Shown: positions 3,621 to 25,213 of the stretch, piece by piece
Position numbering within the stretch: position 1 is the stretch's first letter
Layout of the letters: the number at the start of each line of letters is the position of its first letter
Assembly: GCA_963662685.1 (NCBI GenBank)
Contig: OY759745.1
Coordinates: 2,309,799 to 2,373,798, forward strand
Direction: 5' to 3'
DNA: 64,000 nt
Origin: Bacteroidales bacterium
Lineage (GTDB): Bacteria > Bacteroidota > Bacteroidia > Bacteroidales > VadinHA17
Program-made: the position numbers and the translations under genes
The notes under the pieces: model-generated
What the model saw: only the letters and a program-made list of their open reading frames with translations
What the model was told of the DNA's origin: nothing
The model's database searches: none

Positions 3621-5933
3621 TTACAACTTTGTCAACCTGGCGAAACGAAGTAGTAGTTTTTTGCTCCCAGCCTCTTTAAAATCAACTGTCGCCTTATTGT
3701 TGGGGGCTTCTCCTTCAATGGAGAGTACAACACCTTTGCCAAATCTTTCATGCTCTACTTTATCGCCAGGGGATAAGATTGTATCTCCGAAACCCGTAGT
3801 TCCGCCTGTGGCTTTTTGAGGAGAAATCTTCTTCAGATTCTTCCTTTTGGGTATCTCTATTGCCGGTTGGTTTAACGGCTTTCCGCTGGTTATGTAGGAG
3901 CTTTTCTTTTTTTCTGTCTTTCCCCATTGCTCCCGGCCAGGTACGGAGTGTTTTTCTCTTTCTCCGGATTGTGGATAGCATAACAGCCCTTTGTCCAGTT
4001 CCTTAAGAAACCGGCTGGGACGGCTGAATTCCAGGTTCCCCCACTTGTACCTGTTCATGGCGTAACTGATGGTAACCTGTTTTTCCGCCCTTGTCAGCGC
4101 AACATAAAATAGACGGCGTTCCTCTTCCAGTTCTTTCACTGAATCCACCGACATCGGAGAGGGGAATAGAGTGTCTTCAAAACCTACAATATATACCTGC
4201 TTAAACTCCAGGCCCTTGGCCGAATGGATAGTCATAAGCGTCACTTTATCGGAATCACCCTCCTTTTCATTATCCTGATCGGTCAGTAACGCCACTCCTT
4301 CCATATAGTCACCCAGAAATGAAGGATCCCCGTTTGTAACAGCTTCTTCCGTAAATATTTTGATGCCGTTCAAAAGCTCTTCAATATTATCGATTCGGTT
4401 GAGATCTTCTATTTCCCTGCTCTCTTTCAATTCTCGTTTAATGCCCGATATATCAACTATCTCAACAGCTTTGGTATATGCCTCTTTTTCGTCCAGTCCC
4501 GTTGCGAGTTTATTTATCGTTTCCGCTAATTGATTTAATCTGGAAATAGTACCGTTGCTGAAATAGGAGTGGTACATATGCGCCTTGGTGATACTATCCC
4601 ACAACGTTGAATTGTTTTGTTTGGAAATTTCAAGGAGCCTGTTTACCGTTGTATCTCCAATGCCCCTTTTGGGATAATTTATGATCCTTCTCAGGGCTTC
4701 CTCGTCGTTGTGGTTTATAACCACCCTGAAATAGGCCAGAACATTCCGGATCTCTTTTCTGTCGTAAAAAGACTGTCCTCCATATATCTTATACGGAATG
4801 TTTTTCTTTCTTAATGTCTCCTCGAAAATACGGCTTTGAGCGTTGGTGCGGTAAAGAATAGCGAAATCGTGCCAGTCAAGGTCGCTTGCTTTCTTCTTGC
4901 TGTTTATGTCTGAGGAGACTATTATCCCTTCCTCTATATCTGTTATCGCCTGTAATATGGAAATCTTGTCCCCGCATTCGTTTTTTGAATATACAGTTTT
5001 CTGTATCTGATCTATATTATTAGAGATAACCCTGTTAGCAGCGTTGACTATAGTTTGTGTGGACCTGTAGTTTTGTTCAAGTTTAAAAATCTTGTGTTCG
5101 GGGTAATCTTTTTTAAAGTTCAGTATATTCTCTATACGGGCCCCCCTGAAGGAGTATATGCTCTGGGCATCGTCACCAACAACGCACAGATTGTTGTGCT
5201 TAGCCGCTAATTTGTTGACTATGAGATATTGTGAGTAATTGGTATCCTGGTATTCGTCAACGAGTATATATCCGAATCTTTGCTGATAAGATTCAAGCAC
5301 TGCCGGGAAATCTCTGAACAATATGTTCGTGTTCAGCAAAAGATCATCAAAATCCATTGTGTTGGATCTGAAACATCTTTCCTGGTATGTTTTGTATATC
5401 TCGCGGAAAAGAGGAATCCTGTTGGCTTTGTCGCTTTCCACATAGTTATTGTCAGTTTCGTACCTGTTAGCGGTAATGAGATTGTTCTTGGCGGAGGAGA
5501 TACGTGAAGCTATCGCTCCAGGTCTATATACCTTATCGTCGAGTTGCATATCCTTGATGATGCTCCTGACAAGGCTTTTTGAGTCGGATGCGTCGTATAT
5601 CGTGAAATTGGATTGGTATCCGAGTTTTTCTCCTTCAAGACGTAAAATACGGGCGAAAATGGAGTGAAATGTACCCATCCACAGATACCTGGCTGTCTCT
5701 GTTCCCGCGATCCCGGCAATTCTACCCTTCATCTCGCCGGCTGCTTTGTTAGTAAAGGTAAGGGCCAGGATGTTTCCCGGTTTGATTCCGCATTTTAGCA
5801 GGTAGGCTATACGATAGGTGAGAACCCGGGTTTTTCCGGATCCGGCTCCGGCAATTACCAGAACAGGACCGTCAATGGCTGTAACTGCTTGCTGTTGAGT
5901 TTCGTTTAGGTCGGCTAAAAAATCAATGTCCAT
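3621..5933 (-). CDS. ATP-dependent DNA helicase, UvrD/PcrA/Rep family (SF1)
   Basis: Walker A AGAGSGKTRVLTYRIAYL, motif II VDEYQDTN, TIHSAKGLEF and YVALTRAEK. The C-terminal KVEHERFGKGVV segment looks like a Tudor-like tail. Confidence 0.92.
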   Translation of the reverse strand: MDIDFLADLNETQQQAVTAIDGPVLVIAGAGSGKTRVLTYRIAYLLKCGIKPGNILALTFTNKAAGEMKGRIAGIAGTETARYLWMGTFHSIFARILRLEGEKLGYQSNFTIYDASDSKSLVRSIIKDMQLDDKVYRPGAIASRISSAKNNLITANRYETDNNYVESDKANRIPLFREIYKTYQERCFRSNTMDFDDLLLNTNILFRDFPAVLESYQQRFGYILVDEYQDTNYSQYLIVNKLAAKHNNLCVVGDDAQSIYSFRGARIENILNFKKDYPEHKIFKLEQNYRSTQTIVNAANRVISNNIDQIQKTVYSKNECGDKISILQAITDIEEGIIVSSDINSKKKASDLDWHDFAILYRTNAQSRIFEETLRKKNIPYKIYGGQSFYDRKEIRNVLAYFRVVINHNDEEALRRIINYPKRGIGDTTVNRLLEISKQNNSTLWDSITKAHMYHSYFSNGTISRLNQLAETINKLATGLDEKEAYTKAVEIVDISGIKRELKESREIEDLNRIDNIEELLNGIKIFTEEAVTNGDPSFLGDYMEGVALLTDQDNEKEGDSDKVTLMTIHSAKGLEFKQVYIVGFEDTLFPSPMSVDSVKELEEERRLFYVALTRAEKQVTISYAMNRYKWGNLEFSRPSRFLKELDKGLLCYPQSGEREKHSVPGREQWGKTEKKKSSYITSGKPLNQPAIEIPKRKNLKKISPQKATGGTTGFGDTILSPGDKVEHERFGKGVVLSIEGEAPNNKATVDFKEAGSKKLLLRFARLTKL

Positions 5934-10480: not shown

Positions 10481-12592
10481 ATGAATAAAAATCTATTAAT
10501 ATTTTTAGCTATGATCTTGATGGGTTCTTGTGGTACAGCAACTGAAAAACTCGACTATCCGGTAACAAGGAGAGGAGACCTTGTTGACACGATTTTCGGT
10601 ATTCCCGTTCCTGATCCATACAGATGGCTTGAGGATGATATGTCGGCAGAGACAGCCGAATGGGTAAAAGATCAGAATAATGTAACTTTTGGGTATCTCG
10701 GGGAAATTCCGTACCGCGAAGAAATATTGAAAGGCCTGACGGAATTATACAACTATGAGAAGTTTGGAATGCCCTTTAAAAGGGGTGATTATACATACTT
10801 CGCAAAAAATGATGGTTTGCAGAACCAATATGTATATTATCGTCAAAAAGATGGAGAAGATACTGAACTCTTCCTTGATCCCAACACCTTCTCCCCAGAT
10901 GGTACGACCTCTCTGGGAGAGATGGGATTCTCCAGGGATGGAAGCATGTTCGCATATTCTATTTCAGAGGGAGGATCGGACTGGAGAAAAATAATAGTGA
11001 TGGATGCTATTACCAAAGAGGTACTGGGGGATACTATCAAAGATGCAAAGTTTACCTCAATATCATGGCTGGGAAACGATGGCTTCTTTTACTCAAGCTA
11101 CGATAAACCTGACGGGAGTCAGCTTTCGGCGATGACCGACAGGCATAAACTCTATTTTCATCAAATAGGTACACCCCAGTCGGCAGATAAGGTAATCTTT
11201 GGAAACGGTGAGGCCCGCCGTTATGTTGATGGTTATGTTACCGAGGATCAAAGATTTCTTGTTATTACCGCAGCTATATCGACTACAGGTAATGAACTTT
11301 ATATAAAAGACCTGTCAAAGGAATCAAATCCGATAAAAACTGTCGTTGACAATTTTGGCAGTGATAGTTACGTCATAGATAATGAAGGTTCCGAGCTTTT
11401 TATACAGACAAATTATCAGGCACCAAACATAAGGGTCGTTAAGGTTAACGCATCATCACCCGGAATGGAAAACTGGACCGATCTGATACCTGAAACCGAA
11501 AATGTACTTCAACCTTCTGCAGGTGCGGGTTATCTGTTCGCCAACTATCTTGTTGACGCTATTTCCAGTGTTAAGCAATACGATACTGACGGAAATTTTG
11601 TCAGGGAGATAGCGTTGCCTGGGCCGGGATCAGCCGCTGGCTTCAGCGGAAGAATGGTTGACGATGAATTATATTACTCCTTTACTAATTATATAACGCC
11701 GGGATCGATATACAGGTTTGATCCAGCGACAGGTGATGCGGAGCTTTATAAGAAGCCTGATATAAACTTTAGCAGCGACGATTACCTCTCGGAACAGATT
11801 TTTTATTCGTCAAAAGATGGCACCAGGGTTCCTATGATCATTACCTATAAAAAGGGTACAAAACTTAACGGGAAAAACCCGACGATTCTTTATGGTTACG
11901 GTGGGTTTAATATCAGTGAAACTCCGGCTTTCAGTACTACAGCAGCATGGTGGATGAGGAACGGCGGTATTTATGCCGTGGCCAACATCAGGGGAGGTGG
12001 AGAGTATGGTGAAGCGTGGCATCTGGCGGGGACAAAGATGAACAAGCAGAATGTCTTTGACGATTTTATTGCCGCCGCGGAATATTTGATCGACAATAAT
12101 TATTCTTCAGCGGATTACCTGGCGATCAGGGGAGGGTCCAACGGTGGATTGCTTGTAGGCGCCGTGGCTAACCAGCGTCCCGGGCTTTTTAAGGTTGCCC
12201 TGCCAGCTGTAGGTGTGATGGATATGCTTCGCTATCATAAGTTTACCGCTGGTGCGGGATGGGCATACGACTATGGGACCGCGGACGACAGTAAGGAGAT
12301 GCTGGAATATCTTCTGGGTTATTCTCCGGTACATAATGTAAGGGAAGGCGTAAATTATCCGGCTACGCTGGTTACAACAGGTGACCACGACGACAGGGTG
12401 GTGCCGGCTCACTCGTTCAAATATATAGCAAACCTGCAACTCAAACAGTCGGGTCCTAATCCTGTATTGATTCGTATTGAGACCAATGCGGGACATGGTG
12501 CGGGAACACCGGTAAGTAAAGCACTCGAACAATACGCCGATATCTATGGATTTACTCTATGGAACATGGGAATAAAGAGGCTTCAGGAATAA
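10481..12592 (+). CDS. Prolyl oligopeptidase (S9A serine endopeptidase), lipoprotein/secreted
   Basis: The N-terminus contains DPYRWLED and a beta-propeller region follows. Catalytic GGSNGGLL is present, and D and H sit in the C-terminal GDHDDRV...NAGHG segment. Confidence 0.92.
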
Positions 12593-16885: not shown

Positions 16886-16920
16886 TGTCTTCTTTATTTA
16901 GGAAGACAACAGTTTTTTTT
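16886..16920 (+). terminator. Intrinsic terminator after rsmD
   Basis: TGTCTTCtttatttagGAAGACA (7-bp stem) followed by acagtttttttt. Confidence 0.65.
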
Positions 16921-16955
16921 ATCGGCCTCTTTTTATATTTTTGCTACACCTCATT

Positions 16956-19541
16956 ATGAGCCGCATTATGACAAGGTATACGATTTTATTGGTTGTGTTG
17001 TTGTGTTTGACTTGCTTTCAGCTTGTTGTAGGACAGACACGAAGGGTGGTTCATTTGAATGAGGATTTTGGTTACGATGAGAATATATATTTAATATCCG
17101 ATTTCTCCGGATATTTTTCGGATACCCCTGAACAACTCTCTTTGGCTACGTTGTTGACAAGAAATGTTGATGGGTTTATCTTTGATACCAGAATTGATCC
17201 TGAAAACAATATCTTTATCATTAATAAAAAAAGTGATAACACGATTTCTTTATCTGACGCTTTCGATGAAATAGGAAATTACCTGAAACGTGACTCATCA
17301 AAAATCCTCACAATACTTATTGATTATAATTCAGATTTTCAAAGTCTCGAAGCTGTTATTGAAAGTTCGGGACTTAAACCATATGTATATGAATATACCA
17401 AAGGCACGGATTGGCCATTAGTTTCCCAAATGGTTGATTCCGGAAAACAACTGGTGATTTTCTTGTTAAACAACAGGGAAGATGTTCCGTCATGGATCAA
17501 CAACCTTAATGATTATGCGGTTTGGCAGTCAGACCCCTATATCCAGGTTCCTTCAAACGTAAGTGAAATTCAGGATGAGGGGGAAGAAAAGGGTCTTTTT
17601 GTATTCAATACTTATTCCGATATTGAAGAGAGGTGGAACAGGGAGAGTAGCGTTAATAACATAAGACTGCCATTTTTTATTGAGCCTTTCAAGGAAGCCT
17701 GGATAAGGAACGGCATGATTCCGAATTTTCTTATTATCGAGAATTGGAATTACAGGGTCAACGAGTTTTTAGCTACCGTGCGGGATTTTTCATTGGTTAA
17801 AGGTTCGGTAACTTATAACAACGAATTATTGGACGATCTCTACTGGCTTGGACTTAACAGTTTTACATACGGTGACTTTTGTTTTCCTTTGATGACAGGG
17901 GAGAAGCTGACGCTTACCCCAACAAGCCCGGGCTATAGAATTACTCCGGAAAGTGTCACAGTTGGGGAAGGAACAGAATTGTCGCCGGACTTTAAAGCGG
18001 TTCCTTTAAATATAACCGATAATCTGGAACTGTTTCTGCGACTGGATGACAACACTGACAATTATGACCCTAAAGTATACAGGGGGGAGGATGAGAACGT
18101 CACTTTCATTAACGACCCCAACAGGGGTAAGGTTGCCTCTTTTGGGGATAACAGTATTATTGTATTGCCTACATCCAGTGATTTAAATCTTACTGATCAC
18201 GATTTTACTATATCCGTATGGGTTAAGATATCCAGATTTTCTCCTGGAAAATCTGATTATTGTATAATAGGTTCCGCTGTTCCTGATAGTTATGCGTATC
18301 TACAGGAGATGCATCTGCTCGTCAGAAACAGGATACCCTATTTCGGTTTTTTTGCCAACGATATTACGGGAAAGACAGTTATTGAAGCTGGAAGATGGTA
18401 CAATATTACATGCCGTTATAACAGTGCGAACGGAGAGCAGGCTATTTTTGTTAATGGCAAGCTTGATTCGAGATCTTATTACAGACCTTCATATAAAGGA
18501 ACAGACAGTCTGTTTGTTGGTGTTTTTGGCTTAAGAAACGATACTTATATGCATGGAGAGATGGATAATCTCTCGATATGGTCCAGAGCTTTAGGAGATA
18601 AAGAGATTCTTGGTTTGAGTAATGGATTAATCTCAATCGATACTTACCATAAGGCCTTTGATATAAAAGATTTGTTTTATATAGCTGGAGGGCTAATATT
18701 GGTTTTATCTTTGATTTTCACAGTACTTTACATAAGTAGCCGTAAATCCGGAGGAAAGAAGCAGATATCGGTCATACAGAAAGACACCCAGCCTCTCTCA
18801 AGACATAAGAATTATATCAGGTTTTTTGGAGACTTCCTGGTTTTGGATCGGGAGGGTAATGATATAACATCCAGATTTTCACCAAAAGTAAAGCAGTTGT
18901 TTATGGCTATTTTAGTCAATTCTGGATACGAAAATTCCGGTATAACCAGTGCCGATCTTACAAAACAATTATGGGGACAGGATTTGTCCAAGAATTTGGA
19001 TAATGTCAGAGGAGTAACTACCAGAAAACTTCGCGGAATACTTGAGGATCTGGATAAGGTTGAGATTGTCTTTCATAACGACAGATGGTTTGCTAAGATA
19101 TATGAGCCGGTATACTGCGACTATTGTGAATGCCTTGATATTGTTCATAATGGAAAGGCATATGATAGTAGATATTTTAATAGGTTTCTACGGATAGTAC
19201 AGGAAGGAGAACTCTTTAAAAATGAATCCTTTGAGTGGTTGGACTCGACTAAAGGGTTTATTAATAATAGTATAGTTGACGTCCTTTCGCGTTATCTTGG
19301 GGAAAATGAGATCGGTAAAGATTTGAGGATCAGGATAGCAGATATTATTCTTACTAATGATCCGGTGAATGATGCCGCTATGACGTATAAAATAAAAGGA
19401 ATGGTAGATATGAATAACCATAAACTTGCCAGATACAGTTTCGAGCAGTTCTGCTCACTTTACCATAAGATGTATGGAGAGAAATACCCTAAATCTTTTG
19501 AGCAGTTCACATCTGTTACTCCAAACGGTAATCATACATAG
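16956..19541 (+). CDS. Single-pass membrane protein: exported N-terminal region plus LamG (concanavalin-A-like) domain, TM helix, and cytoplasmic SARP/OmpR-like winged-helix DNA-binding domain
   Basis: - Signal peptide: TILLVVLLCLTCFQLVVGQ.
- LamG_3-type block: DHDFTISVWVK...GRWYNITCRYNSANGEQAIFVNGKL...HGEMDNLSIWSRALGDKEI, about 18020-18610.
- TM helix FYIAGGLILVLSLIFTVLYI followed by RKSGGKK, about 18675-18760.
- Winged-helix signature IRFFGDFLVLDREGNDIT..F.PK.KQLF..IL......GITS.DL...LWGQD....L.N.RGV...KLR..LEDL, about 18800-19080.
- The start is ambiguous among TTG 16941, ATG 16956 and ATG 16968. Confidence 0.75.
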   Translation: MSRIMTRYTILLVVLLCLTCFQLVVGQTRRVVHLNEDFGYDENIYLISDFSGYFSDTPEQLSLATLLTRNVDGFIFDTRIDPENNIFIINKKSDNTISLSDAFDEIGNYLKRDSSKILTILIDYNSDFQSLEAVIESSGLKPYVYEYTKGTDWPLVSQMVDSGKQLVIFLLNNREDVPSWINNLNDYAVWQSDPYIQVPSNVSEIQDEGEEKGLFVFNTYSDIEERWNRESSVNNIRLPFFIEPFKEAWIRNGMIPNFLIIENWNYRVNEFLATVRDFSLVKGSVTYNNELLDDLYWLGLNSFTYGDFCFPLMTGEKLTLTPTSPGYRITPESVTVGEGTELSPDFKAVPLNITDNLELFLRLDDNTDNYDPKVYRGEDENVTFINDPNRGKVASFGDNSIIVLPTSSDLNLTDHDFTISVWVKISRFSPGKSDYCIIGSAVPDSYAYLQEMHLLVRNRIPYFGFFANDITGKTVIEAGRWYNITCRYNSANGEQAIFVNGKLDSRSYYRPSYKGTDSLFVGVFGLRNDTYMHGEMDNLSIWSRALGDKEILGLSNGLISIDTYHKAFDIKDLFYIAGGLILVLSLIFTVLYISSRKSGGKKQISVIQKDTQPLSRHKNYIRFFGDFLVLDREGNDITSRFSPKVKQLFMAILVNSGYENSGITSADLTKQLWGQDLSKNLDNVRGVTTRKLRGILEDLDKVEIVFHNDRWFAKIYEPVYCDYCECLDIVHNGKAYDSRYFNRFLRIVQEGELFKNESFEWLDSTKGFINNSIVDVLSRYLGENEIGKDLRIRIADIILTNDPVNDAAMTYKIKGMVDMNNHKLARYSFEQFCSLYHKMYGEKYPKSFEQFTSVTPNGNHT

Positions 19542-19669
19542 GTGTAATCTTGTTTTATATCTGAACCATATTTTTCAATAAATGGAAAATTTATTGTTAA
19601 AAAATGTTTAATATTTATATGTCTGACATGTAGCGTATTGACTGTAATGGTTGTGTGTCGCAGACATGA

Positions 19670-19702
19670 AATTAATTCAGAATTAATTCAAAATTAATTC
19701 GA
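19670..19702 (+). promoter_or_regulatory. Three tandem 11-bp direct repeats (AATTAATTCAG / AATTAATTCAA / AATTAATTCGA), a candidate activator binding array
   Basis: Read directly from the sequence: a 9-nt core AATTAATTC repeated three times at exact 11-bp phase. The array ends 8 nt upstream of a near-consensus -7 box, TATATTTA at 19711-19718. It lies 118 nt upstream of the ATG at 19820. Confidence 0.5.
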
Positions 19703-19819
19703 CGTTTACCTATATTTAATTATAAATTATGGGTTTTGCGCTACATTAGAAAATGTTTTGGAATCCGAATAACTTTAATTTATTTTTCGTACAACAACTA
19801 ACTAATATCAATTAAAGAA

Positions 19820-21313
19820 ATGAACAACAAAAAAACAGATGGAAACAACATTTCCAGGAGGAATTTTTTGGGAAAATCTGCCGCCGCCGCCGCTGGTTTG
19901 ACAATAATTCCACGTCACGTAATGGGCGGTCAGGGATATAAAGCTCCCAGTGATATTCCAAACATTGCCGGTATCGGTGTCGGCGCCCAGGGTGGCGGCG
20001 ATATTCGTAATATTGCCAGCAAGGATGTTCCAACAACCCAGGAATACCAGCGTGCAGAGACTGAGGGAAAAGGTTGGGCCGGAATTCAGCCCCCACCGAG
20101 GCCAAGACCCACCGGTTTTGACCCGAATGCTGCCGTTCAGGTTGGTAATGCCGATATGGAAACGGTAAGGCATGGTAATATCTATGCTCTTTGCGATGTC
20201 GACAAAGACTATGCAGCGCATATGTTCAAAGGCTATCCAAACGCCAAGCAGTATACCGATTTTCGTAAGATGATCGATACAGAAAAGAGCCTTGACGGTG
20301 TTGTTATTGGTACTCCAGATCATACTCATGCTGTTATTGCGGCTTATGCTATGGCTGCTGGTCTGGCGGTATTTGTAGAGAAGCCTATGACAAAAACAAT
20401 TTATGAAGCACGAAAGCTTGCTTCTCTGGCCAAAAAGTTTAACGTAGTTACACAGATGGGTAATCAAGGTCATAACATCGAAGGTACCTATAGAACAATG
20501 GAGTGGATACAATCAGGCAAAATAGGATTTGTCAGGGAGGTCCATATGTGGTCTAACCGACCAAGCTGGCCCCAAGGTTATATGACACGTCCTCCAGCTG
20601 AAAAAGTACCCAAAAACCTGGATTACGATCTTTGGCTTGGTCCCGCACCGGAGAAACCATATACACCTACCGCTCTCCATTTTAACTGGAGAGGTCTGCG
20701 TGATTATGGAACAGGTGCTATGGGTGATATGGGTGCCCATACTTTTGATGCCCCGATACTTGCTCTAAACTTGGGCATGCCAACAGAAATTCAGGCCACA
20801 TCGACTCCGTATAGTGAGGATTATCTGCCTCAGGGCGAAAGTGTTACTTATAAGTTCCCTGCTCGCGGCGCCTCACCGGAAGTTACAGTTACATGGCAGG
20901 ATGGTGGCATAAAACCGGCTCGTCCTTATTCTCTTGAGGATGACCGTCAGTTAAGGGAAGCCCTTTATATAGGCGACAAGGGTATGATCATGCACGGTAC
21001 TCATGGTGCTGACCCGGAATTGATTCCTAATGAACCTGACTTTGCTGTTGAGCCCTGGCTTGAAAGGCCAAAGAGTGTTTATGTGGATTTCTGTGAAGCT
21101 ATTACTGAAGGCAGGAAAGCTAAAAATGATTTCGAGATTTCCTCAAAACTTACTGAAATAATGTTGCTCACAAATATCGCTGTTGTATCGCAACAGATCA
21201 ACACAACGTTGAAATATGACGCGGAGAACATGAAAATAACAAATCTGCCTGAAGCTAACGATTACTTCCACTACGAATATCGGAATGGTTGGGAGAAGTA
21301 TCTTGAGGTGTGA
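19820..21313 (+). CDS. TAT-exported Gfo/Idh/MocA family oxidoreductase
   Basis: Twin-arginine signal SRRNFLGKSAAAAAGLTIIP. Gfo/Idh/MocA core: ALCDVD...VVIGTPDHTHA...AGLAVFVEKPM. Confidence 0.88.
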   Translation: MNNKKTDGNNISRRNFLGKSAAAAAGLTIIPRHVMGGQGYKAPSDIPNIAGIGVGAQGGGDIRNIASKDVPTTQEYQRAETEGKGWAGIQPPPRPRPTGFDPNAAVQVGNADMETVRHGNIYALCDVDKDYAAHMFKGYPNAKQYTDFRKMIDTEKSLDGVVIGTPDHTHAVIAAYAMAAGLAVFVEKPMTKTIYEARKLASLAKKFNVVTQMGNQGHNIEGTYRTMEWIQSGKIGFVREVHMWSNRPSWPQGYMTRPPAEKVPKNLDYDLWLGPAPEKPYTPTALHFNWRGLRDYGTGAMGDMGAHTFDAPILALNLGMPTEIQATSTPYSEDYLPQGESVTYKFPARGASPEVTVTWQDGGIKPARPYSLEDDRQLREALYIGDKGMIMHGTHGADPELIPNEPDFAVEPWLERPKSVYVDFCEAITEGRKAKNDFEISSKLTEIMLLTNIAVVSQQINTTLKYDAENMKITNLPEANDYFHYEYRNGWEKYLEV

Positions 21314-21784
21314 TTATAATTTGTCCTGAAATCCAATATATAAAAGCCAGATAACTCGGATGCGATAAGATTCTAATAAACAAATGATCATTTCATTGAC
21401 TTACAGGGTGGTAATTCTTATATGAATCTTTGAGCATCCGACGTTATCTGAAAATCAGGATTGAGCGAGGAGATGCGATTAGTTAAAGTATTGGATTTTA
21501 TGACTGGAATTTTGGGAATGACCAAATTATTCAGTTAAAGGATTATTATGGTTAAACAACATAAGAGTTATTCTTAAAAAGTAATGAAGAATTAAGGATG
21601 CCAGTTAGAATTTTTGTATTAATAGGGTTGCTGAGGTTAAGATATAGATATCATTTGGGTGGTTAAAGGATTGAGTTGTGGTTACGTCAGCAACCCTTTT
21701 ATTATATGTTTTAGACTCCTGTACGGATATTACTGGTAATTATTATATTTACGAAATAAACATCAACAATTAATTCCAATTTCA

Positions 21785-22942
21785 ATGAAAAACGAAAAGA
21801 ACAATCAAATTTCAAGAAGGGGGTTTTTGGGCAGTGCGGCTGTTGTTGCCGCGGCCGCGACAATGGTCCCATCATTGGTTTCATGCGGCGGAGGCAAGGA
21901 TGATCCTTACGCCAATGCTCTTATAAAAGAGGATGGTAAACCAAATTCTAAATTTAATGGGGTCCAGGTAGGCGCTATTACTTATAGTTTTAAAGGAGTT
22001 AGCGGTTCAGACGCAACAATAAAGGCATGTATGGAGGCCAACGTAAGTTCTATAGAATTAATGGGAAACGGTCTGGAAGAAGAGGTTGGCGCACCAACTA
22101 ACCCAGTTCAGAGAAGAGGTGGATTTGGAGGCGGTCCGATGCCGGGCGGCCCAATGCCGGGTGGTCCAATGCCGGGTGGTGCTCCCGGTGGTGGTGGAAT
22201 GCCGGGCGGTCCTCCCGCTGGCGGCGCTATGCCGCAGATGCAACAGCCTGAGTTGACCGAAGAAGAAAAGGCCCTTCAGGCTAAGTACGAAGAAGATTTG
22301 GCGGCTTTCCGAAAAGATCCGGCAACAATGGAAAAATGGGCGGCACTCGCTAAAAAATTCTCAGATGCGGGAATAGATGTTCATATTTTCAAATGGACAG
22401 CCGGAGATACAGACGAACTAATGGATTACTCGTTCAGTGTAGCTAAACTATTTGGAGCGGTAGGAATAACAACCGAGGGAAGTGAAGAAACCTGTAAGAC
22501 TTTTGGCGCTCATGCTGAACGAAATGGAATGTTGGCTATTTATCATAACCATGGTCAATACGCTCCGTTGCAAATATCGGATATTGACAGATGGCTCGCA
22601 TATTCGCCCGCTAACAGGCTTAATTTTGATTGCGGACACTATTTTGGTTTCGGTTATGATACACCTGGACTTGATCCTATACAGTTCATAGATCATTTTG
22701 CCGATAAAATAGCGAGTGTGCATTTCAAGGACAAAACCAAGCTTACTAATGAGTTCGCCAGTAACCAGAACCAGGTATGGGGCCAGGGCGAAACCCCGGT
22801 CAGGGAAATATTACAGCATATCCGCGATAATTATCCTTATATGTATTGTGATATCGAACTTGAATATTCGGTACCCGCATGGTCTGATTCAGCAAAAGAG
22901 GTTGCCACATGCGTTCGCTATGCGAGAGAAGCTTTGATCTAA
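21785..22942 (+). CDS. TAT-exported, possibly lipidated, sugar phosphate isomerase/epimerase family protein (xylose-isomerase-like TIM barrel) with a Gly/Pro/Met-rich insertion
   Basis: Twin-arginine signal SRRGFLGSAAVVAAAATMVPSLVSC. TIM-barrel blocks: IELMGN, DAGIDVHIFKW, AIYHNHG, NFDCGHY, HFKD and CDIELEY. The insertion reads GGFGGGPMPGGPMPGGPMPGGAPGGGGMPGGPPAGGAMPQMQQ. Confidence 0.85.
   Translation: MKNEKNNQISRRGFLGSAAVVAAAATMVPSLVSCGGGKDDPYANALIKEDGKPNSKFNGVQVGAITYSFKGVSGSDATIKACMEANVSSIELMGNGLEEEVGAPTNPVQRRGGFGGGPMPGGPMPGGPMPGGAPGGGGMPGGPPAGGAMPQMQQPELTEEEKALQAKYEEDLAAFRKDPATMEKWAALAKKFSDAGIDVHIFKWTAGDTDELMDYSFSVAKLFGAVGITTEGSEETCKTFGAHAERNGMLAIYHNHGQYAPLQISDIDRWLAYSPANRLNFDCGHYFGFGYDTPGLDPIQFIDHFADKIASVHFKDKTKLTNEFASNQNQVWGQGETPVREILQHIRDNYPYMYCDIELEYSVPAWSDSAKEVATCVRYAREALI
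22130..22174 (+). repeat. 3 x 15-bp in-frame tandem repeat encoding (GGPMP)3, the core of a longer low-complexity tract at about 22112-22232
   Basis: ggcggtccgatgccg / ggcggcccaatgccg / ggtggtccaatgccg, read directly. Degenerate copies follow. Confidence 0.9.
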
Positions 22943-23143: not shown

Positions 23144-23218
23144 GGTGCGGTAGTTCAGTTTGGTTAGAATACCGGCCTGTCACGCCGGGGGTCGCGGGTT
23201 CGAGTCCCGTCCGCACCG
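23144..23218 (+). tRNA. tRNA-Asp (anticodon GTC)
   Basis: Folded by hand.
- Acceptor stem GGTGCGG/CCGCACC.
- D stem GTTC/GAAT with G10-U25.
- Anticodon stem CCGGC/GCCGG, loop CTGTCAC.
- T arm GCGGG-TTCGAGT-CCCGT, discriminator G.
CCA is not encoded. Confidence 0.95.
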
Positions 23219-23232
23219 CTTATATGACTTAA

Positions 23233-23266
23233 AAACCTCTCGATTCCCGGGAGGTTTTGTTTTTTA
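23233..23266 (+). terminator. Hairpin plus T-run after tRNA-Asp
   Basis: aAACCTCtcgattcccggGAGGTTttgtttttt. Confidence 0.6.
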
Positions 23267-23348
23267 TCATTTAAGTTTTTTTGTAAGTTAACCAGTAAGC
23301 GTACCTTCTTTTATAAGAGTATACTTATCCGTTCTCGTAAAGAATTTT

Positions 23349-23386
23349 ATAGCAGTAATAGTTGGAATTCCAACTATTACTGCTAT
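23349..23386. promoter_or_regulatory. 38-bp perfect palindrome, candidate MarR operator overlapping the marR -7 box
   Basis: ATAGCAGTAATAGTTGGAA|TTCCAACTATTACTGCTAT has 19-nt arms with no mismatch. The right arm overlaps TATTTTTG (23384-23391), an exact TAnnTTTG box 16 nt upstream of the MarR ATG. Confidence 0.6.
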
Positions 23387-23407
23387 TTTTGCACAAACAA
23401 ATCTATC

Positions 23408-23854
23408 ATGAAAAACATTTCTGCGGGAAAATGTATTAATGAGCTTTCCCGGGCTGCCAGTGTTTACTTTCAGCATGAATTCAAGAAATATAATATAGGT
23501 CATGCCCAGATCAGGACACTGCTTTTTATTGCTCAAAATGAATGCAAAACACAAATGGATGTAGCTCAATATCTGAATCTGGATAAGTCATCTGTAACTT
23601 CTCAACTGAATGTGTTGGAAAAAAACGGGTATATAATCAGGCATAAATCTGAAAGGGACGGAAGAAAGCACCAGTTAAATATAACTGATAAGACAAGGGA
23701 GATATTAGATCCATTAAAAATGGTGTTTATGTCGTGGACCGAAATTTTGCTTGATGGTTTTAGTGAGAGCGAGAGAACGGAAGTTTTTAACTATCTGTTC
23801 AGAATGAGAGATAACGCAAAGAACGGACTAAATATGATAAAGAATCAGGATTAA
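23408..23854 (+). CDS. MarR family transcriptional regulator
   Basis: 148 aa with a winged-helix core: Q...L..I......Q.D.A..L.LDKSSVT..L..LE..GYI.R.....D.R. Confidence 0.88.
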   Translation: MKNISAGKCINELSRAASVYFQHEFKKYNIGHAQIRTLLFIAQNECKTQMDVAQYLNLDKSSVTSQLNVLEKNGYIIRHKSERDGRKHQLNITDKTREILDPLKMVFMSWTEILLDGFSESERTEVFNYLFRMRDNAKNGLNMIKNQD

Positions 23855-23872
23855 TTTTAAAAGGATCATTAT

Positions 23873-25213
23873 ATGTCAGGAAGAGGAAAAAATCTAACAG
23901 AAGGGAGTATTAACCGGCAGCTTTACGATTTAACGTGGCCTATGGTGCTTGGGATGATGGGAATTGTGATTTTTAATCTTGTTGACACATATTTTGTTGG
24001 CAAACTTGGAGTTCAGGAACTCGCCGCTATCAGTTTCAGTTTTCCGGTTATTATGTTTATCAATAGTTTATCCCAGGGAGTTGGTGTTGGGATAAGCTCT
24101 TTGATTTCAAGAAATATCATTGATACCAGTCGTGACGAAGTTAAGATGATGGCAAGTCGTGCCATTTTATTGGGAGTACTTGTTGTCCTGTTCTTTGTGA
24201 TTGTTGGCCTGCTCACAATTCAGCCTGTATTCGGTGTGCTTGGTGCGGGAAACGATATCTTCCCTTATATAAAGGATTATATGGTCATTTGGTATTTAGG
24301 TGTTCCTTTTGTTGTTATTCCAATGGTTGGAAACAATATCGTGCGCGCGACCGGAGATACTTTTACTCCCGGTATGATAATGGTTGTTAGCGGTCTTGTT
24401 AATGTCATACTTGATCCTCTGTTTATTTTTGGATATGGACCATTTCCTGAAATGGGAATAAAGGGGGCGGCGCTCGCTACTCTGATCTCCAGAGGGGTAA
24501 GTTTAATATTAATATTGGTAGTTTTGATCAAGCGGGAAAAATTGTTCACTTTTCATTTTGGTAAGTTTAGCAGTATAATATCAACATGGAAGAATGTTCT
24601 TTACATTGCGGGTCCAGCTTCACTAACGTTGCTGATCACGCCGGTATCGACAGGATTAATTACAAGAATTCTGGCAGGATTTGGGACAGAAGCTGTTGCC
24701 GCTTTTGGGGTCACTTCAAGAATAGAAATGTTTGCCTTAATGGTTGTTATGTCCATGGGCTCAGTATTGGTTATATTCGTCGGTCAAAATTTAAGTAAAT
24801 TAAAATTCCAACGTATATTCGATGTCTTAAAAATCTCCGCTAAATTTTCGGTTATATGGGGAATATCTGTATACCTGATACTTTTATTCTTGGGAAGATT
24901 GATCATATCTGCCTTTACGAGCGATATTGATGTAATCGAAATAGCAGTAAAATATTTTTATATTATTGGCGCGAGTTACGGATTTCAGGGACTTGTGATG
25001 CTGAGCACTTCAAGCTTTAACGGGTTAAATAAACCATATCCCTCTTCTTTCTTTTCTATTGTCCGGATGTTGGTTTTGTACGTTCCTCTGGCATGGTTAG
25101 GATCCAGGATATTTGATGTTAATGGAGTGTTCTGGGCCGGATTTATAGCTAATGTGATTGTAGGTCCTGTTTCGTTCCTGTATTTAAATAGGACCGTTAA
25201 GAGTCTGAGGTGA
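23873..25213 (+). CDS. MATE family efflux transporter
   Basis: 446 aa and about 12 TM segments. The MATE N-terminal signature is L..L..P...G......L...VDT.FVG.LG...LAA. It lies 18 nt downstream of marR, so an operon is likely. Confidence 0.9.
   Translation: MSGRGKNLTEGSINRQLYDLTWPMVLGMMGIVIFNLVDTYFVGKLGVQELAAISFSFPVIMFINSLSQGVGVGISSLISRNIIDTSRDEVKMMASRAILLGVLVVLFFVIVGLLTIQPVFGVLGAGNDIFPYIKDYMVIWYLGVPFVVIPMVGNNIVRATGDTFTPGMIMVVSGLVNVILDPLFIFGYGPFPEMGIKGAALATLISRGVSLILILVVLIKREKLFTFHFGKFSSIISTWKNVLYIAGPASLTLLITPVSTGLITRILAGFGTEAVAAFGVTSRIEMFALMVVMSMGSVLVIFVGQNLSKLKFQRIFDVLKISAKFSVIWGISVYLILLFLGRLIISAFTSDIDVIEIAVKYFYIIGASYGFQGLVMLSTSSFNGLNKPYPSSFFSIVRMLVLYVPLAWLGSRIFDVNGVFWAGFIANVIVGPVSFLYLNRTVKSLR

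Follow-up and report, generated by a model that had tools for sequence, protein, structure and literature searches.

A membrane-tethered SARP-type regulator of Bacteroidota that very probably switches on neighbouring sugar-oxidising genes through a row of 11-bp repeats

Which promoter would be addressed by a bacterial protein that seems to carry a sensor outside the cytoplasmic membrane and a DNA-binding module inside it? The question is raised by a gene on the forward strand of a Bacteroidales contig, analysed here within a stretch of 64 kb (hereafter the window, meaning the whole of this DNA). Periplasmic nutrient sensing in Bacteroidota is usually told as a matter of three regulator classes, and the mechanism of one well-known sensor, SusR, is to our knowledge still unsettled; SARPs, on the other side, are normally treated as actinobacterial antibiotic regulators. 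A preliminary description of the open reading frame at 16956–19541 had listed a signal-like N-terminus, an exported LamG block, a transmembrane helix, and a C-terminal module, and all four elements are present in that order. The frame extends from 16941 or 16956 to 19541 (forward strand). Because a Bacteroidetes −7 box, TATTTTTG (16936–16943, forward strand), overlaps the TTG at 16941, translation starts at ATG 16956 (861 aa) or at ATG 16968 (857 aa), the latter matching the database copy P0001 with its 857 aa. A terminator-like hairpin (16886–16908) precedes this box, which by its position would be the regulator gene's own promoter.

The N-terminus (aa 1–26, 16956–17033, forward strand) resembles a signal peptide, its hydrophobic segment spanning aa 8–26 with a hydropathy of 2.4 and ending at VVG, followed by QT. 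The exported stretch behind it was computed at ~545 aa, shorter than the ~590 residues given earlier. Its first part, aa ~27–277 (17034–17786, forward strand), is predicted to form a PI-PLC-like (beta/alpha) barrel: precomputed Pfam assignments match it to PI-PLC_X (PF26146) and Rv2075c_cat (PF26178), the AF2 model of this domain reaches a pLDDT of 86, and Foldseek returned 34 matches at E ≤ 1e-3, 34 of 34 being PI-PLCs, at a modest TM-score of ~0.45. The earlier impression that the first ~330 exported residues are PLC-like is borne out by these matches, as is the remark that they hold no catalytic His motif, since no invariant or near-invariant His or Arg occurs in aa 27–285 in alignments of 24 and 21 family sequences, where only W, P, G, F, and one D are invariant. 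Judged by these alignments, the barrel is a non-catalytic PI-PLC-like fold in which the catalytic His pair and Arg are not conserved. A small all-beta sandwich is predicted at aa ~279–350 (17790–18005, forward strand; strands 253–323 of the AF2 model). The LamG/concanavalin-like jelly roll was recovered by an HMM search at aa 408–551 (18177–18608, forward strand; Laminin_G_3, E 7e-16, 59.1 bits against a Pfam gathering cut-off of 27.6).

Exactly one internal transmembrane segment was found, at aa 573–591 (18672–18728, forward strand; hydropathy 2.55). It is followed by SRKSGGKK, and the residues directly after the segment, YISSRKSGGKKQISV, include four K/R and carry a net charge of +4, compared with −1 on the upstream side. 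One transmembrane segment with a positive-inside charge pattern is present in 24 of 24 family members, among which the helix is kept as a feature and not as a sequence. The membrane helix and its basic flank are thereby as first described, and the charge distribution in all 24 homologs supports a C-terminus inside the cell. The linker between this helix and the winged helix varies between 20 and 45 aa in the family alignment.

The cytoplasmic part is predicted to comprise an OmpR/SARP-type winged helix-turn-helix (wHTH; aa ~620–715, 18813–19100, forward strand), with NVRGVTTRKLRGIL as the predicted recognition helix, and a BTAD-like all-helical domain (aa ~722–853, 19119–19514, forward strand). 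The AF2 model of aa 612–861 (pLDDT 89.8, pTM 0.85) has the layout b-b-H-H-H-hairpin followed by seven helices, in keeping with the helical stretch noted at the outset. Only six PDB entries were matched by this model in Foldseek at E ≤ 1e-3, all of them SARP proteins aligned over ~248 columns; these were AfsR (8hvr_I, 7.5e-8) and EmbR (2fez, 8e-6), matched over the full length with a probability of 1.00, the TM-scores against SARP structures being only 0.57–0.59. Pfam and NCBIfam searches with the full protein returned nothing besides LamG, and thus no significant match to Trans_reg_C or BTAD. The best hits of a PDB profile search with the C-terminus were to the TPR of EMC2 and to ToxR (E ~0.25–0.5), the ToxR wHTH being matched at E 0.5 over helices 2–3, and Pfam BTAD gave weak, sub-threshold matches in 7 of 21 family members (best E 1.3e-3). 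Since the query has no significant Trans_reg_C or BTAD match, its SARP membership rests on predicted structure: the winged helix proposed in the preliminary description stands as a fold and not as a Pfam assignment, and the predicted fold supports reading the C-terminal 250 aa as a SARP module, wHTH plus BTAD. Within the regulator family, conservation is highest in the wHTH. The checks on fold and topology that had been named beforehand as able to overturn the preliminary reading came out in its favour.

New here is a conserved 11-bp array behind the gene, which the earlier reading had overlooked. It starts 128 bp past the regulator's stop codon, ends 7 bp before a −7-like box, and consists of six 11-bp-phased units, AAATTAATTCA, GAATTAATTCA, AAATTAATTCG, ACGTTTACCTA, TATTTAATTAT, and AAATTATGGGT (19669–19734, forward strand; TRF period 11), which together form the predicted operator. 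A triple repeat of the unit is unique within the window, where none is expected; scans that allowed up to 3 mismatches, or that looked for runs of phased TTA, found no further copies there, and in particular none upstream of the second presumed target gene (21785) or of the regulator gene. An alignment of 12 loci drawn from different families shows all six TT(A) cores without variation and exactly 11 bp apart; behind the homologous gene, the array recurs in 77 of 82 loci, among them those of Parabacteroides distasonis and Prolixibacteraceae. When 1.36 Mb were scanned on both strands for arrays scoring at least 16 of 18, 86 were found, of which 85 lie within 400 nt past the stop codon of a family gene and the remaining one 2.1 kb past such a stop codon, with zero elsewhere. 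The array thus occurs behind this gene family only, whichever operon comes next, and in nearly all loci its distance from the end of the regulator's coding sequence is no more than ~130 bp. In shuffle tests the phased TTA runs of single loci were moderately unusual and for several loci marginal, and we therefore rely on conservation across loci and on positional exclusivity. From clade to clade, the predicted recognition helix and the unit sequence vary in step: ATTAATTC is paired with NVRGVTTRKLRG in the window clade, ATTAGCC with SLRSVSILKLRK in Bacteroidales, and ATTAACC with NSRGVTIRKLRL in Prolixibacteraceae, a comparison of three clades that is confounded by phylogeny.

The geometry of the array agrees with the published rule for SARP binding sites (PMC10936776). 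By that rule, direct repeats recur at a spacing of 11 or 22 bp, and the one at the 3′ end is separated from the −10 element by 8 bp; within an 11-bp repeat the protein touches the first 8 bp, and neighbouring protomers sit side by side, dimerising only on DNA. On this sequence evidence, the regulator would bind its own array. That array has six units, whereas described SARP sites typically have two or three. Behind the array, a −7-like box, TACATTAG (19742–19749, forward strand), begins 70 nt downstream of unit 1, counted from the first T of that unit. The motif TAnnTTTG stands exactly 70 nt past unit 1 in 46 of 81 loci, and TAnnTTnG at +70/71 in 54 of 81; the window's own box is imperfect and degenerate. 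A canonical −33 TTTG is not evident at the window promoter and is missing at the array promoters of the loci examined.

The gene right behind the array always opens an operon with a GFO/IDH/MocA oxidoreductase. In the window, the first presumed target (19820–21313, forward strand) encodes a TAT-exported member of this family related to the glycoside 3-dehydrogenase BT_2158 (NF058561 at E 4e-132, which is below the equivalog cut-off; PDB 8tdf at 6e-91), and the second (21785–22942, forward strand) a TAT-signal protein with weak similarity to IolE/sugar-phosphate-isomerase TIM barrels. Both genes are co-conserved in 19 loci. The suggested link between the regulator and pairs of a TAT oxidoreductase and a TIM-barrel protein is seen in the window clade and in ~17 Parabacteroides/Bacteroidaceae loci. 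In Prolixibacteraceae, a cytochrome c-FGE fusion plus a separate GFO/IDH/MocA enzyme take the place of the pair. In Bacteroides thetaiotaomicron, the analogous locus BT2156-59 is activated by the membrane-spanning sensor BT2160 upon exposure to disaccharides (PMC8121099; bioRxiv 10.1101/2025.07.13.664583). The regulator described here very probably switches on its neighbouring sugar-oxidising genes by way of the row of 11-bp repeats.

The computed results cover the folds of the domains, the signals of membrane topology, a phased array that is conserved and tied to this gene family alone, and a clade-level match of array and helix. They can be joined in a mechanism for a membrane-spanning one-component transcription activator that we regard as probable. 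The exported barrel, beta-sandwich, and LamG jelly roll would serve as a periplasmic ligand-binding sensor, which most likely recognises a glycoside or sugar akin to what the neighbouring enzymes act on. A single transmembrane helix and a short basic linker would join this sensor to the cytoplasmic SARP module. Upon ligand binding, which may act as the switch by driving oligomerisation, several membrane-held protomers would settle next to each other along a single face of the DNA, each on its own 11-bp unit between 19669 and 19734; the last unit would occupy the −33 position, 7–8 bp before the −7 box. In that place the SARP modules would recruit or adapt RNA polymerase in the manner of AfsR and so induce the operon that encodes the BT2158-like periplasmic glycoside 3-dehydrogenase and its TIM-barrel partner.

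The same protein might instead be an inactive membrane-tethered precursor, from which regulated intramembrane proteolysis frees a soluble SARP activator onto the array once ligand is bound. The variable linker of 20–45 aa between membrane helix and wHTH could hold a cleavage site, and stand-alone SARP-module proteins of 228–250 aa do occur in the family (e.g., P0242 and P0216, both on long contigs). We nevertheless consider this unlikely: no protease gene is conserved beside the regulator gene in the loci examined, on published accounts the functional analogues ToxR, CadC, and SusR work while membrane-bound (PMC3878776, PMC6874557), and an operator ~130 bp from the stop codon would be needless for a diffusible protein. 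Such proximity suits a membrane-bound one, whose co-transcriptional insertion would call for a nearby target. A somewhat smaller chance still is given to repression, in which the regulator would sit on the array and block the −33 region until a periplasmic ligand frees the promoter. Unit 6 indeed overlaps the place expected for the −33 element, and a perfect −7 box, as present in 46 of 81 loci, might need no activator; the box is degenerate in the window, however, and the missing −33 TTTG is typical of activator-dependent promoters. Moreover, characterised SARPs are all activators that replace a poor −35 element (PMC10936776), and the analogous sensors SusR, BT2160, and BguR are all activators as well (PMC8121099; bioRxiv 10.64898/2026.01.10.698779).

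Very improbable is an arrangement with an enzyme (phosphodiesterase or lectin-enzyme) as the exported part, a protein scaffold as the helical tail, and some other factor as the user of the array. While the N-terminal domain matches PI-PLC families and folds, the residues by which a PI-PLC would act, the His pair and Arg, are not among its invariant W, P, G, F, and single D. BTAD and TPR-like domains often mediate protein contacts, and the query has no significant sequence-level wHTH match; yet the wHTH is conserved better than any other part of the family, its recognition helix varies with the array, and the array stands solely behind the regulator family, whatever operon comes next. The attachment of the same C-terminal module to unrelated exported domains (Kelch, small jelly roll) is likewise the behaviour of sensors and not of enzymes. 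A membrane-bound activator acting on the array is therefore the reading that we adopt.

The family is large and widespread. Full-length homologs of the regulator number 23 at 30–76% identity, 298 species representatives share its exact architecture, and the cytoplasmic module falls into at least 962 clusters at 50% identity in an exhaustive search, as against 24 family matches in a word-indexed protein search. The module is also found fused to other exported domains, among them Kelch and small jelly-roll domains, and relatives carrying it adjoin susC/susD and GH genes. The hosts range from P. distasonis of the human gut to marine and sediment Prolixibacteraceae. The SARP assignment as such is not new, because IMG names homologs as SARP/SAPR family and a 'SARP-OmpR' class is already named among the regulators of predicted PULs (PMC7641319, citing PUL prediction work). 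That class, an automatic-prediction label, probably belongs to the same protein superfamily as the regulator, and in the literature searched no description of its membrane anchoring, sensors, operator, or targets was found. The searchable literature likewise yielded no experiments on any family member and, on transmembrane-anchored SARPs in Bacteroidota, only this one-line class mention and the non-homologous BguR, an absence that is no proof.

[quoted passage not shown] One SARP module would be combined with interchangeable sensors (PI-PLC-like barrel plus LamG, Kelch propellers, small jelly rolls), several of its membrane-held protomers would assemble on a phased array of 11-bp units standing in for the −33 element, and the subfamily studied here, including the P. 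distasonis homolog, would be a dedicated switch for periplasmic oxidative (3-keto) glycoside cleavage. SARPs would then have a second life as transmembrane receptors. The family may offer a tractable system in which to ask how a membrane-bound SARP activates a sigma-A promoter of Bacteroidetes, an entry point into the control of the recently recognised oxidative glycoside-cleavage pathway, and, as a compact sensor–promoter pair, a potential inducible switch in gut Bacteroidales; its sharply defined predicted operator and target operon make it easily testable.

Comparison with known systems places the regulator at a junction of several. With the SARPs AfsR (SARP domain), EmbR, ActII-ORF4, and DnrI it shares, by predicted fold, an OmpR-type wHTH followed by an all-helical BTAD, and its predicted operator shares with SARP sites the 11-bp direct repeats, the ~8 conserved bp per unit, and a last repeat 7–8 bp from the −10/−7 element (PMC10936776). 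Described SARPs are soluble actinobacterial proteins with an N-terminal module, followed by NOD/TPR or FHA domains, and control antibiotic clusters, whereas here the module is C-terminal in a type-I membrane protein of Bacteroidota, where sigma-A promoters are of the −33/−7 type, and the presumed targets are sugar-oxidation genes; sequence similarity between the two lies below Pfam thresholds. ToxR and CadC are also one-component, membrane-bound winged-helix activators of the OmpR type, but they lack both the signal peptide and the BTAD predicted here and carry the wHTH at a cytoplasmic N-terminus and the sensor at a periplasmic C-terminus, so that the reversed polarity claimed earlier is confirmed. 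None of the HTCS domains (HisKA, HATPase_c, REC, AraC HTH) gave a Pfam match in the regulator.

The reversed topology is not unprecedented in Bacteroidota, because SusR (BT3705) has the same layout of periplasmic sensor, single transmembrane helix, and C-terminal cytoplasmic DNA-binding domain, with no phosphorelay (PMC3878776), and BT2160 controls the same kind of target, a 3-keto-glycoside locus with the BT2158 dehydrogenase and an IolE-like TIM barrel (PMC8121099). The parts were compared by means of a BT2160-like protein, reached from PDB 8tdf through exact metagenomic copies and their contig, which is a SusR-family protein with TPR_SusR and SusR_C/DUF6377 (PF19904; DUF6377 at 3e-87). A simply SusR-like identity was rejected: hhalign of the C-terminal profile against this protein gave a probability of 0.3%, and DUF6377, at a limit as loose as E ≤ 10, matches neither the query nor any of 21 relatives. 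The sites predicted for SusR also differ, consisting of two boxes 67 or 77 bp apart (PMC3878776) in place of a contiguous 11-bp array. BguR of marine Bacteroidota, a membrane-spanning laminarin regulator of the one-component type reported only in 2026, resembles the regulator in its signal peptide, periplasmic sensor, single transmembrane helix, and C-terminal DNA-binding domain, and likewise activates its adjacent locus with no phosphorelay (bioRxiv 10.64898/2026.01.10.698779). Its parts are an HTCS-like double beta-propeller/Y_Y_Y sensor and a GerE/LuxR HTH, for neither of which the regulator has a Pfam match, in contrast to the PI-PLC-like barrel, LamG, and SARP output found here. The departure from known Bacteroidota paradigms proposed in the preliminary description consequently concerns the parts, which are not homologous to those of SusR, and not the layout, which is exactly that of SusR and BguR: with SusR the regulator shares a plan and not an ancestry, and it is the parts that differ, not the logic.

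The C-terminus of the regulator is, by its modelled fold, a SARP module. Profile methods gave little for this part of the protein: Pfam returned no match to Trans_reg_C or BTAD in the query, BTAD matched weakly in only 7 of 21 relatives (best E 1.3e-3), and a PDB profile search aligned helices 2-3 with the ToxR winged helix at E ~0.5 and the distal helices with a TPR protein at E 0.25. For aa 612-861, AlphaFold2 with 21 input sequences gave a model (pLDDT 89.8, pTM 0.85) of two strands, three helices and a beta-hairpin wing followed by seven helices. All six Foldseek matches of this model in the PDB at E<=1e-3 are SARPs, namely the AfsR SARP domain from structures of transcription initiation complexes (8hvr_I at E 7.5e-8; 8k60) and EmbR (2fez, 2ff4); the alignments span ~248 columns each, at a probability of 1.00 and TM-scores of 0.55-0.59. 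Since every significant match is a SARP, the main structural claim of the preliminary description, a SARP/OmpR-type winged helix, withstands the refutation test that it had set itself.

The module is encoded at the end of a single long + strand ORF (16941..19541 in the ORF listing of the window). A terminator-like hairpin after the rsmD-like upstream gene is followed by a canonical Bacteroidetes-type -7 promoter box (TATTTTTG, 16936-16943) directly 5′ of the regulator start. This box overlaps the TTG at 16941, the start in the mechanical ORF list, which thus falls within the promoter, so that the ATG at 16956 originally proposed is reasonable; the identical database protein, of 857 aa, starts at the ATG at 16968. 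Twenty-three full-length homologs (830-890 aa, 30-76% identity) are alignable end to end.

A hydropathy scan found an N-terminal signal-like segment and exactly one internal hydrophobic segment (aa 573-591 in the query) in each of 24 family members, with 3-7 Lys/Arg within the 15 residues C-terminal to the latter in all of them. This positive-inside pattern, read from sequence, places the N-terminal part in the periplasm and the C-terminus in the cytoplasm, and a cytoplasmic C-terminus would hold even with the signal peptide uncleaved. The observation first made at 16956-19541, an exported sensor with one TM helix and positive-inside charge, is confirmed, and its interpretation is supported by the AfsR/EmbR-like fold and by the uniform topology. 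Laminin_G_3 is the sole Pfam match of the query (aa 408-551, E 7e-16), and an NCBIfam search added nothing useful. For the N-terminal 250 aa, precomputed Pfam matches are PI-PLC_X (PF26146) and Rv2075c_cat (PF26178); an AlphaFold2 model of aa 27-350 (pLDDT 86) has 34 Foldseek matches in the PDB at E<=1e-3, all of them phosphatidylinositol-specific phospholipases C with a modest TM-score of ~0.45. The family alignment contains no conserved His or Arg in this region, in which only Trp, Pro, Gly and Phe residues and one Asp are invariant. The PI-PLC-like part is read as a non-catalytic ligand-binding barrel; a small beta-sandwich (aa ~279-350) and then the LamG domain come after it.

Absent from the preliminary description is an array of six units, found here as a conserved predicted operator. 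In the 278-bp spacer between the regulator stop codon and the next gene lies a tandem repeat with a period of 11 bp (AAATTAATTCA x 2.9, 19669-19700), and three weaker units continue it in register to 19734. The triple ATTAATTC pattern is unique within the 64-kb window and had no match in 100 shuffles. From species-representative genomes, a scan in which 298 species had a relative, 80 homologous loci were retrieved; those 298 include Parabacteroides distasonis, Odoribacter, Bacteroidaceae and Prevotellaceae MAGs, Sunxiuqinia, Gaoshiqia, Mangrovibacterium and many Prolixibacteraceae. There the six-unit array lies a median of 100 bp 3′ of the regulator stop codon, and an alignment of 12 loci has as its invariant columns TT(A) cores at positions 12, 23/24, 34, 45, 56 and 67, an exact 11-bp period. 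A search for six phased TTA cores (score >=16/18, both strands, 82 loci, 1.36 Mb) gave 86 matches in 77 of the 82 loci, 85 of them <=400 nt 3′ of a regulator-family stop codon and one 2.1 kb 3′ of it; no array occurred elsewhere than 3′ of a regulator-family gene. The regulator's own promoter (16936-16943 region) carries no such array and thus gives no indication of autoregulation. In the P. distasonis locus (L003), ~8 copies of a TGCCA...TGGCA-type repeat (~10644-10790) lie between stop codon and array, because of which the spacer measures 434 bp instead of ~200-300 bp.

The array is phased with a promoter. Counted from the first T of unit 1, the Bacteroidetes -7 box TAnnTTTG lies at exactly +70 nt in 46 of 81 loci, and the relaxed form TAnnTTnG is found at +70/71 in 54 of 81, including the window (TACATTAG, 19742-19749). 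With this spacing, unit 6 ends 7-8 bp 5′ of the box, in the -33 position. In published SARP sites, direct repeats are spaced by 11 or 22 bp, and 8 bp separate the 3′ repeat from the -10 element; of each 11-bp repeat a protomer touches the first 8 bp, and protomers bind side by side, forming dimers only on DNA (PMC10936776). The array of the regulator family matches these sites in repeat spacing and promoter distance. Unit and predicted recognition helix also change together: ATTAATTC with NVRGVTTRKLRG in the clade of the window, ATTAGCC with SLRSVSILKLRK in the Bacteroidales clade, and ATTAACC with NSRGVTIRKLRL in the Prolixibacteraceae clade. This co-variation, seen in only three clades, supports a link between regulator and putative operator.

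The first gene behind the array (19820-21313) encodes a TAT-signal GFO/IDH/MocA oxidoreductase that scores E 4e-132 with the NCBIfam BT_2158 glycoside 3-dehydrogenase model, below the equivalog cut-off and hence a BT_2158 relative rather than an ortholog, and E 6e-91 with the PDB dehydrogenase 8tdf. It is followed by a TIM-barrel-like TAT-signal protein with weak IolE/sugar-phosphate-isomerase similarity (21785-22942), which has a lipobox-like LVSC directly after the twin-arginine signal and a low-complexity insert rich in Gly/Pro/Met (GGFGGGPMPGGPMPGGPMPGGAPGGGGMPGG..., aa ~100-145). This pair also lies behind the regulator in the closest relative (L001) and in ~17 Parabacteroides/Bacteroidaceae loci, the regulators of the latter being only 36-41% and the oxidoreductases 61-70% identical, but not in two Prolixibacteraceae loci examined. 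In these (L013, 10799-15033; L048, 10761-13657), a NapC/NirT multihaem cytochrome c fused to an FGE-sulfatase-like domain lies directly behind the array, with one or two GFO/IDH/MocA oxidoreductases next in line; such a layout might connect the quinone pool with a periplasmic dehydrogenase. Common to the array-linked loci is an operon for a periplasmic sugar-type oxidoreductase. In the Parabacteroides/Bacteroidaceae loci the two genes are nearly contiguous; in the window they are separated by a 472-bp gap (21314-21784) with no ORF >57 aa, and a pattern search found no copy of the array there. Between the TIM-barrel and mscS-like genes (23144-25213) lie a tRNA gene (23144-23218, Rfam 68 bits), a MarR-like ORF of 148 aa (23408-23854) and a MATE transporter (23873-25213), the last absent at the corresponding place in the 76%-identity relative L001.

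Alongside the computed folds, topology signals, exclusive array, phasing and clade-level co-variation, we infer that the regulator would bind DNA, activate transcription and oligomerise in response to its ligand, and also what kind of ligand this would be. The periplasmic barrel/LamG sensor would bind a glycoside-like ligand, and SARP modules would align along the phased array, which reaches the -33 region of the neighbouring promoter. An ectodomain acting as an enzyme, with a C-terminal tail that does not bind DNA, would draw on the phospholipase-like fold and is not favoured beside the barrel's lack of conserved His or Arg and the SARP-like tail. Nor is repression instead of activation favoured, given an array placed like the sites of SARP activators, or proteolytic release of the SARP module from the membrane.

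The C-terminal profile, used in an exhaustive HMM search, finds the module in 962 clusters (50% identity) at E<=1e-30 and in at least 2,500 at E<=1e-3; most top matches share the 830-890-aa architecture. Other members place Kelch/galactose-oxidase-like propellers or a small jelly roll (in the relative P0052) before TM helix and SARP module, or combine a PI-PLC-like barrel with two LamG domains (~1,030 aa). Gene calls give one Kelch-propeller relative as two overlapping ORFs (L084, 7770-10299; 413 aa Kelch, 432 aa TM plus SARP), either a frameshift or a genuine split, and a susC/susD pair lies divergent to it. A 433-aa member adjoins GH92/GH99/GH95 genes, and from ~20 nt past its stop codon, 5′ of the GH92 genes, 3-4 ATTAAT units recur at 11-bp spacing (L085, 10320-10365), which suggests that this type of operator extends to the superfamily as a whole. 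IMG labels many relatives 'SARP family' or 'SAPR', and 'SARP-OmpR' is a regulator class given for predicted PULs (PMC7641319); a literature search found no paper characterising any family member.

An analogous 3-keto-glycoside locus, BT2156-59 of B. thetaiotaomicron, is activated by BT2160, a SusR-like inner-membrane protein (PMC8121099; bioRxiv 10.1101/626366; bioRxiv 10.1101/2025.07.13.664583). A BT2160-type locus (L083), reached via the 8tdf dehydrogenase and its metagenomic copies, has the order regulator, GFO, TatA, GFO, 3-keto-disaccharide hydrolase, AP_endonuc_2, the small tatA/B/E gene (5759-5923) lying between the two GFO/IDH/MocA genes. Its 550-aa regulator consists of TPR_SusR and SusR_C (DUF6377, E 3e-87). 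Homology of the present regulator to SusR was rejected, as hhalign of the C-terminal profile against the BT2160-type regulator gave a probability of 0.3%, and Pfam found no DUF6377 in the query and 21 relatives. The difference from SusR claimed initially therefore stands for the parts but not for the layout: SusR is described as sensing in the periplasm and binding DNA with a C-terminal domain in the cytoplasm (PMC3878776), so that the reverse-of-ToxR arrangement was already known, and it has recently been reported again for BguR (bioRxiv 10.64898/2026.01.10.698779). New here are a concrete predicted operator and target operon for the regulator, an uncharacterised, new variant that joins two known kinds, SARP activators and the membrane-spanning one-component sensors of Bacteroidota. 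SusR/BT2160 and the present regulator are analogous devices, built from different parts on the same layout.
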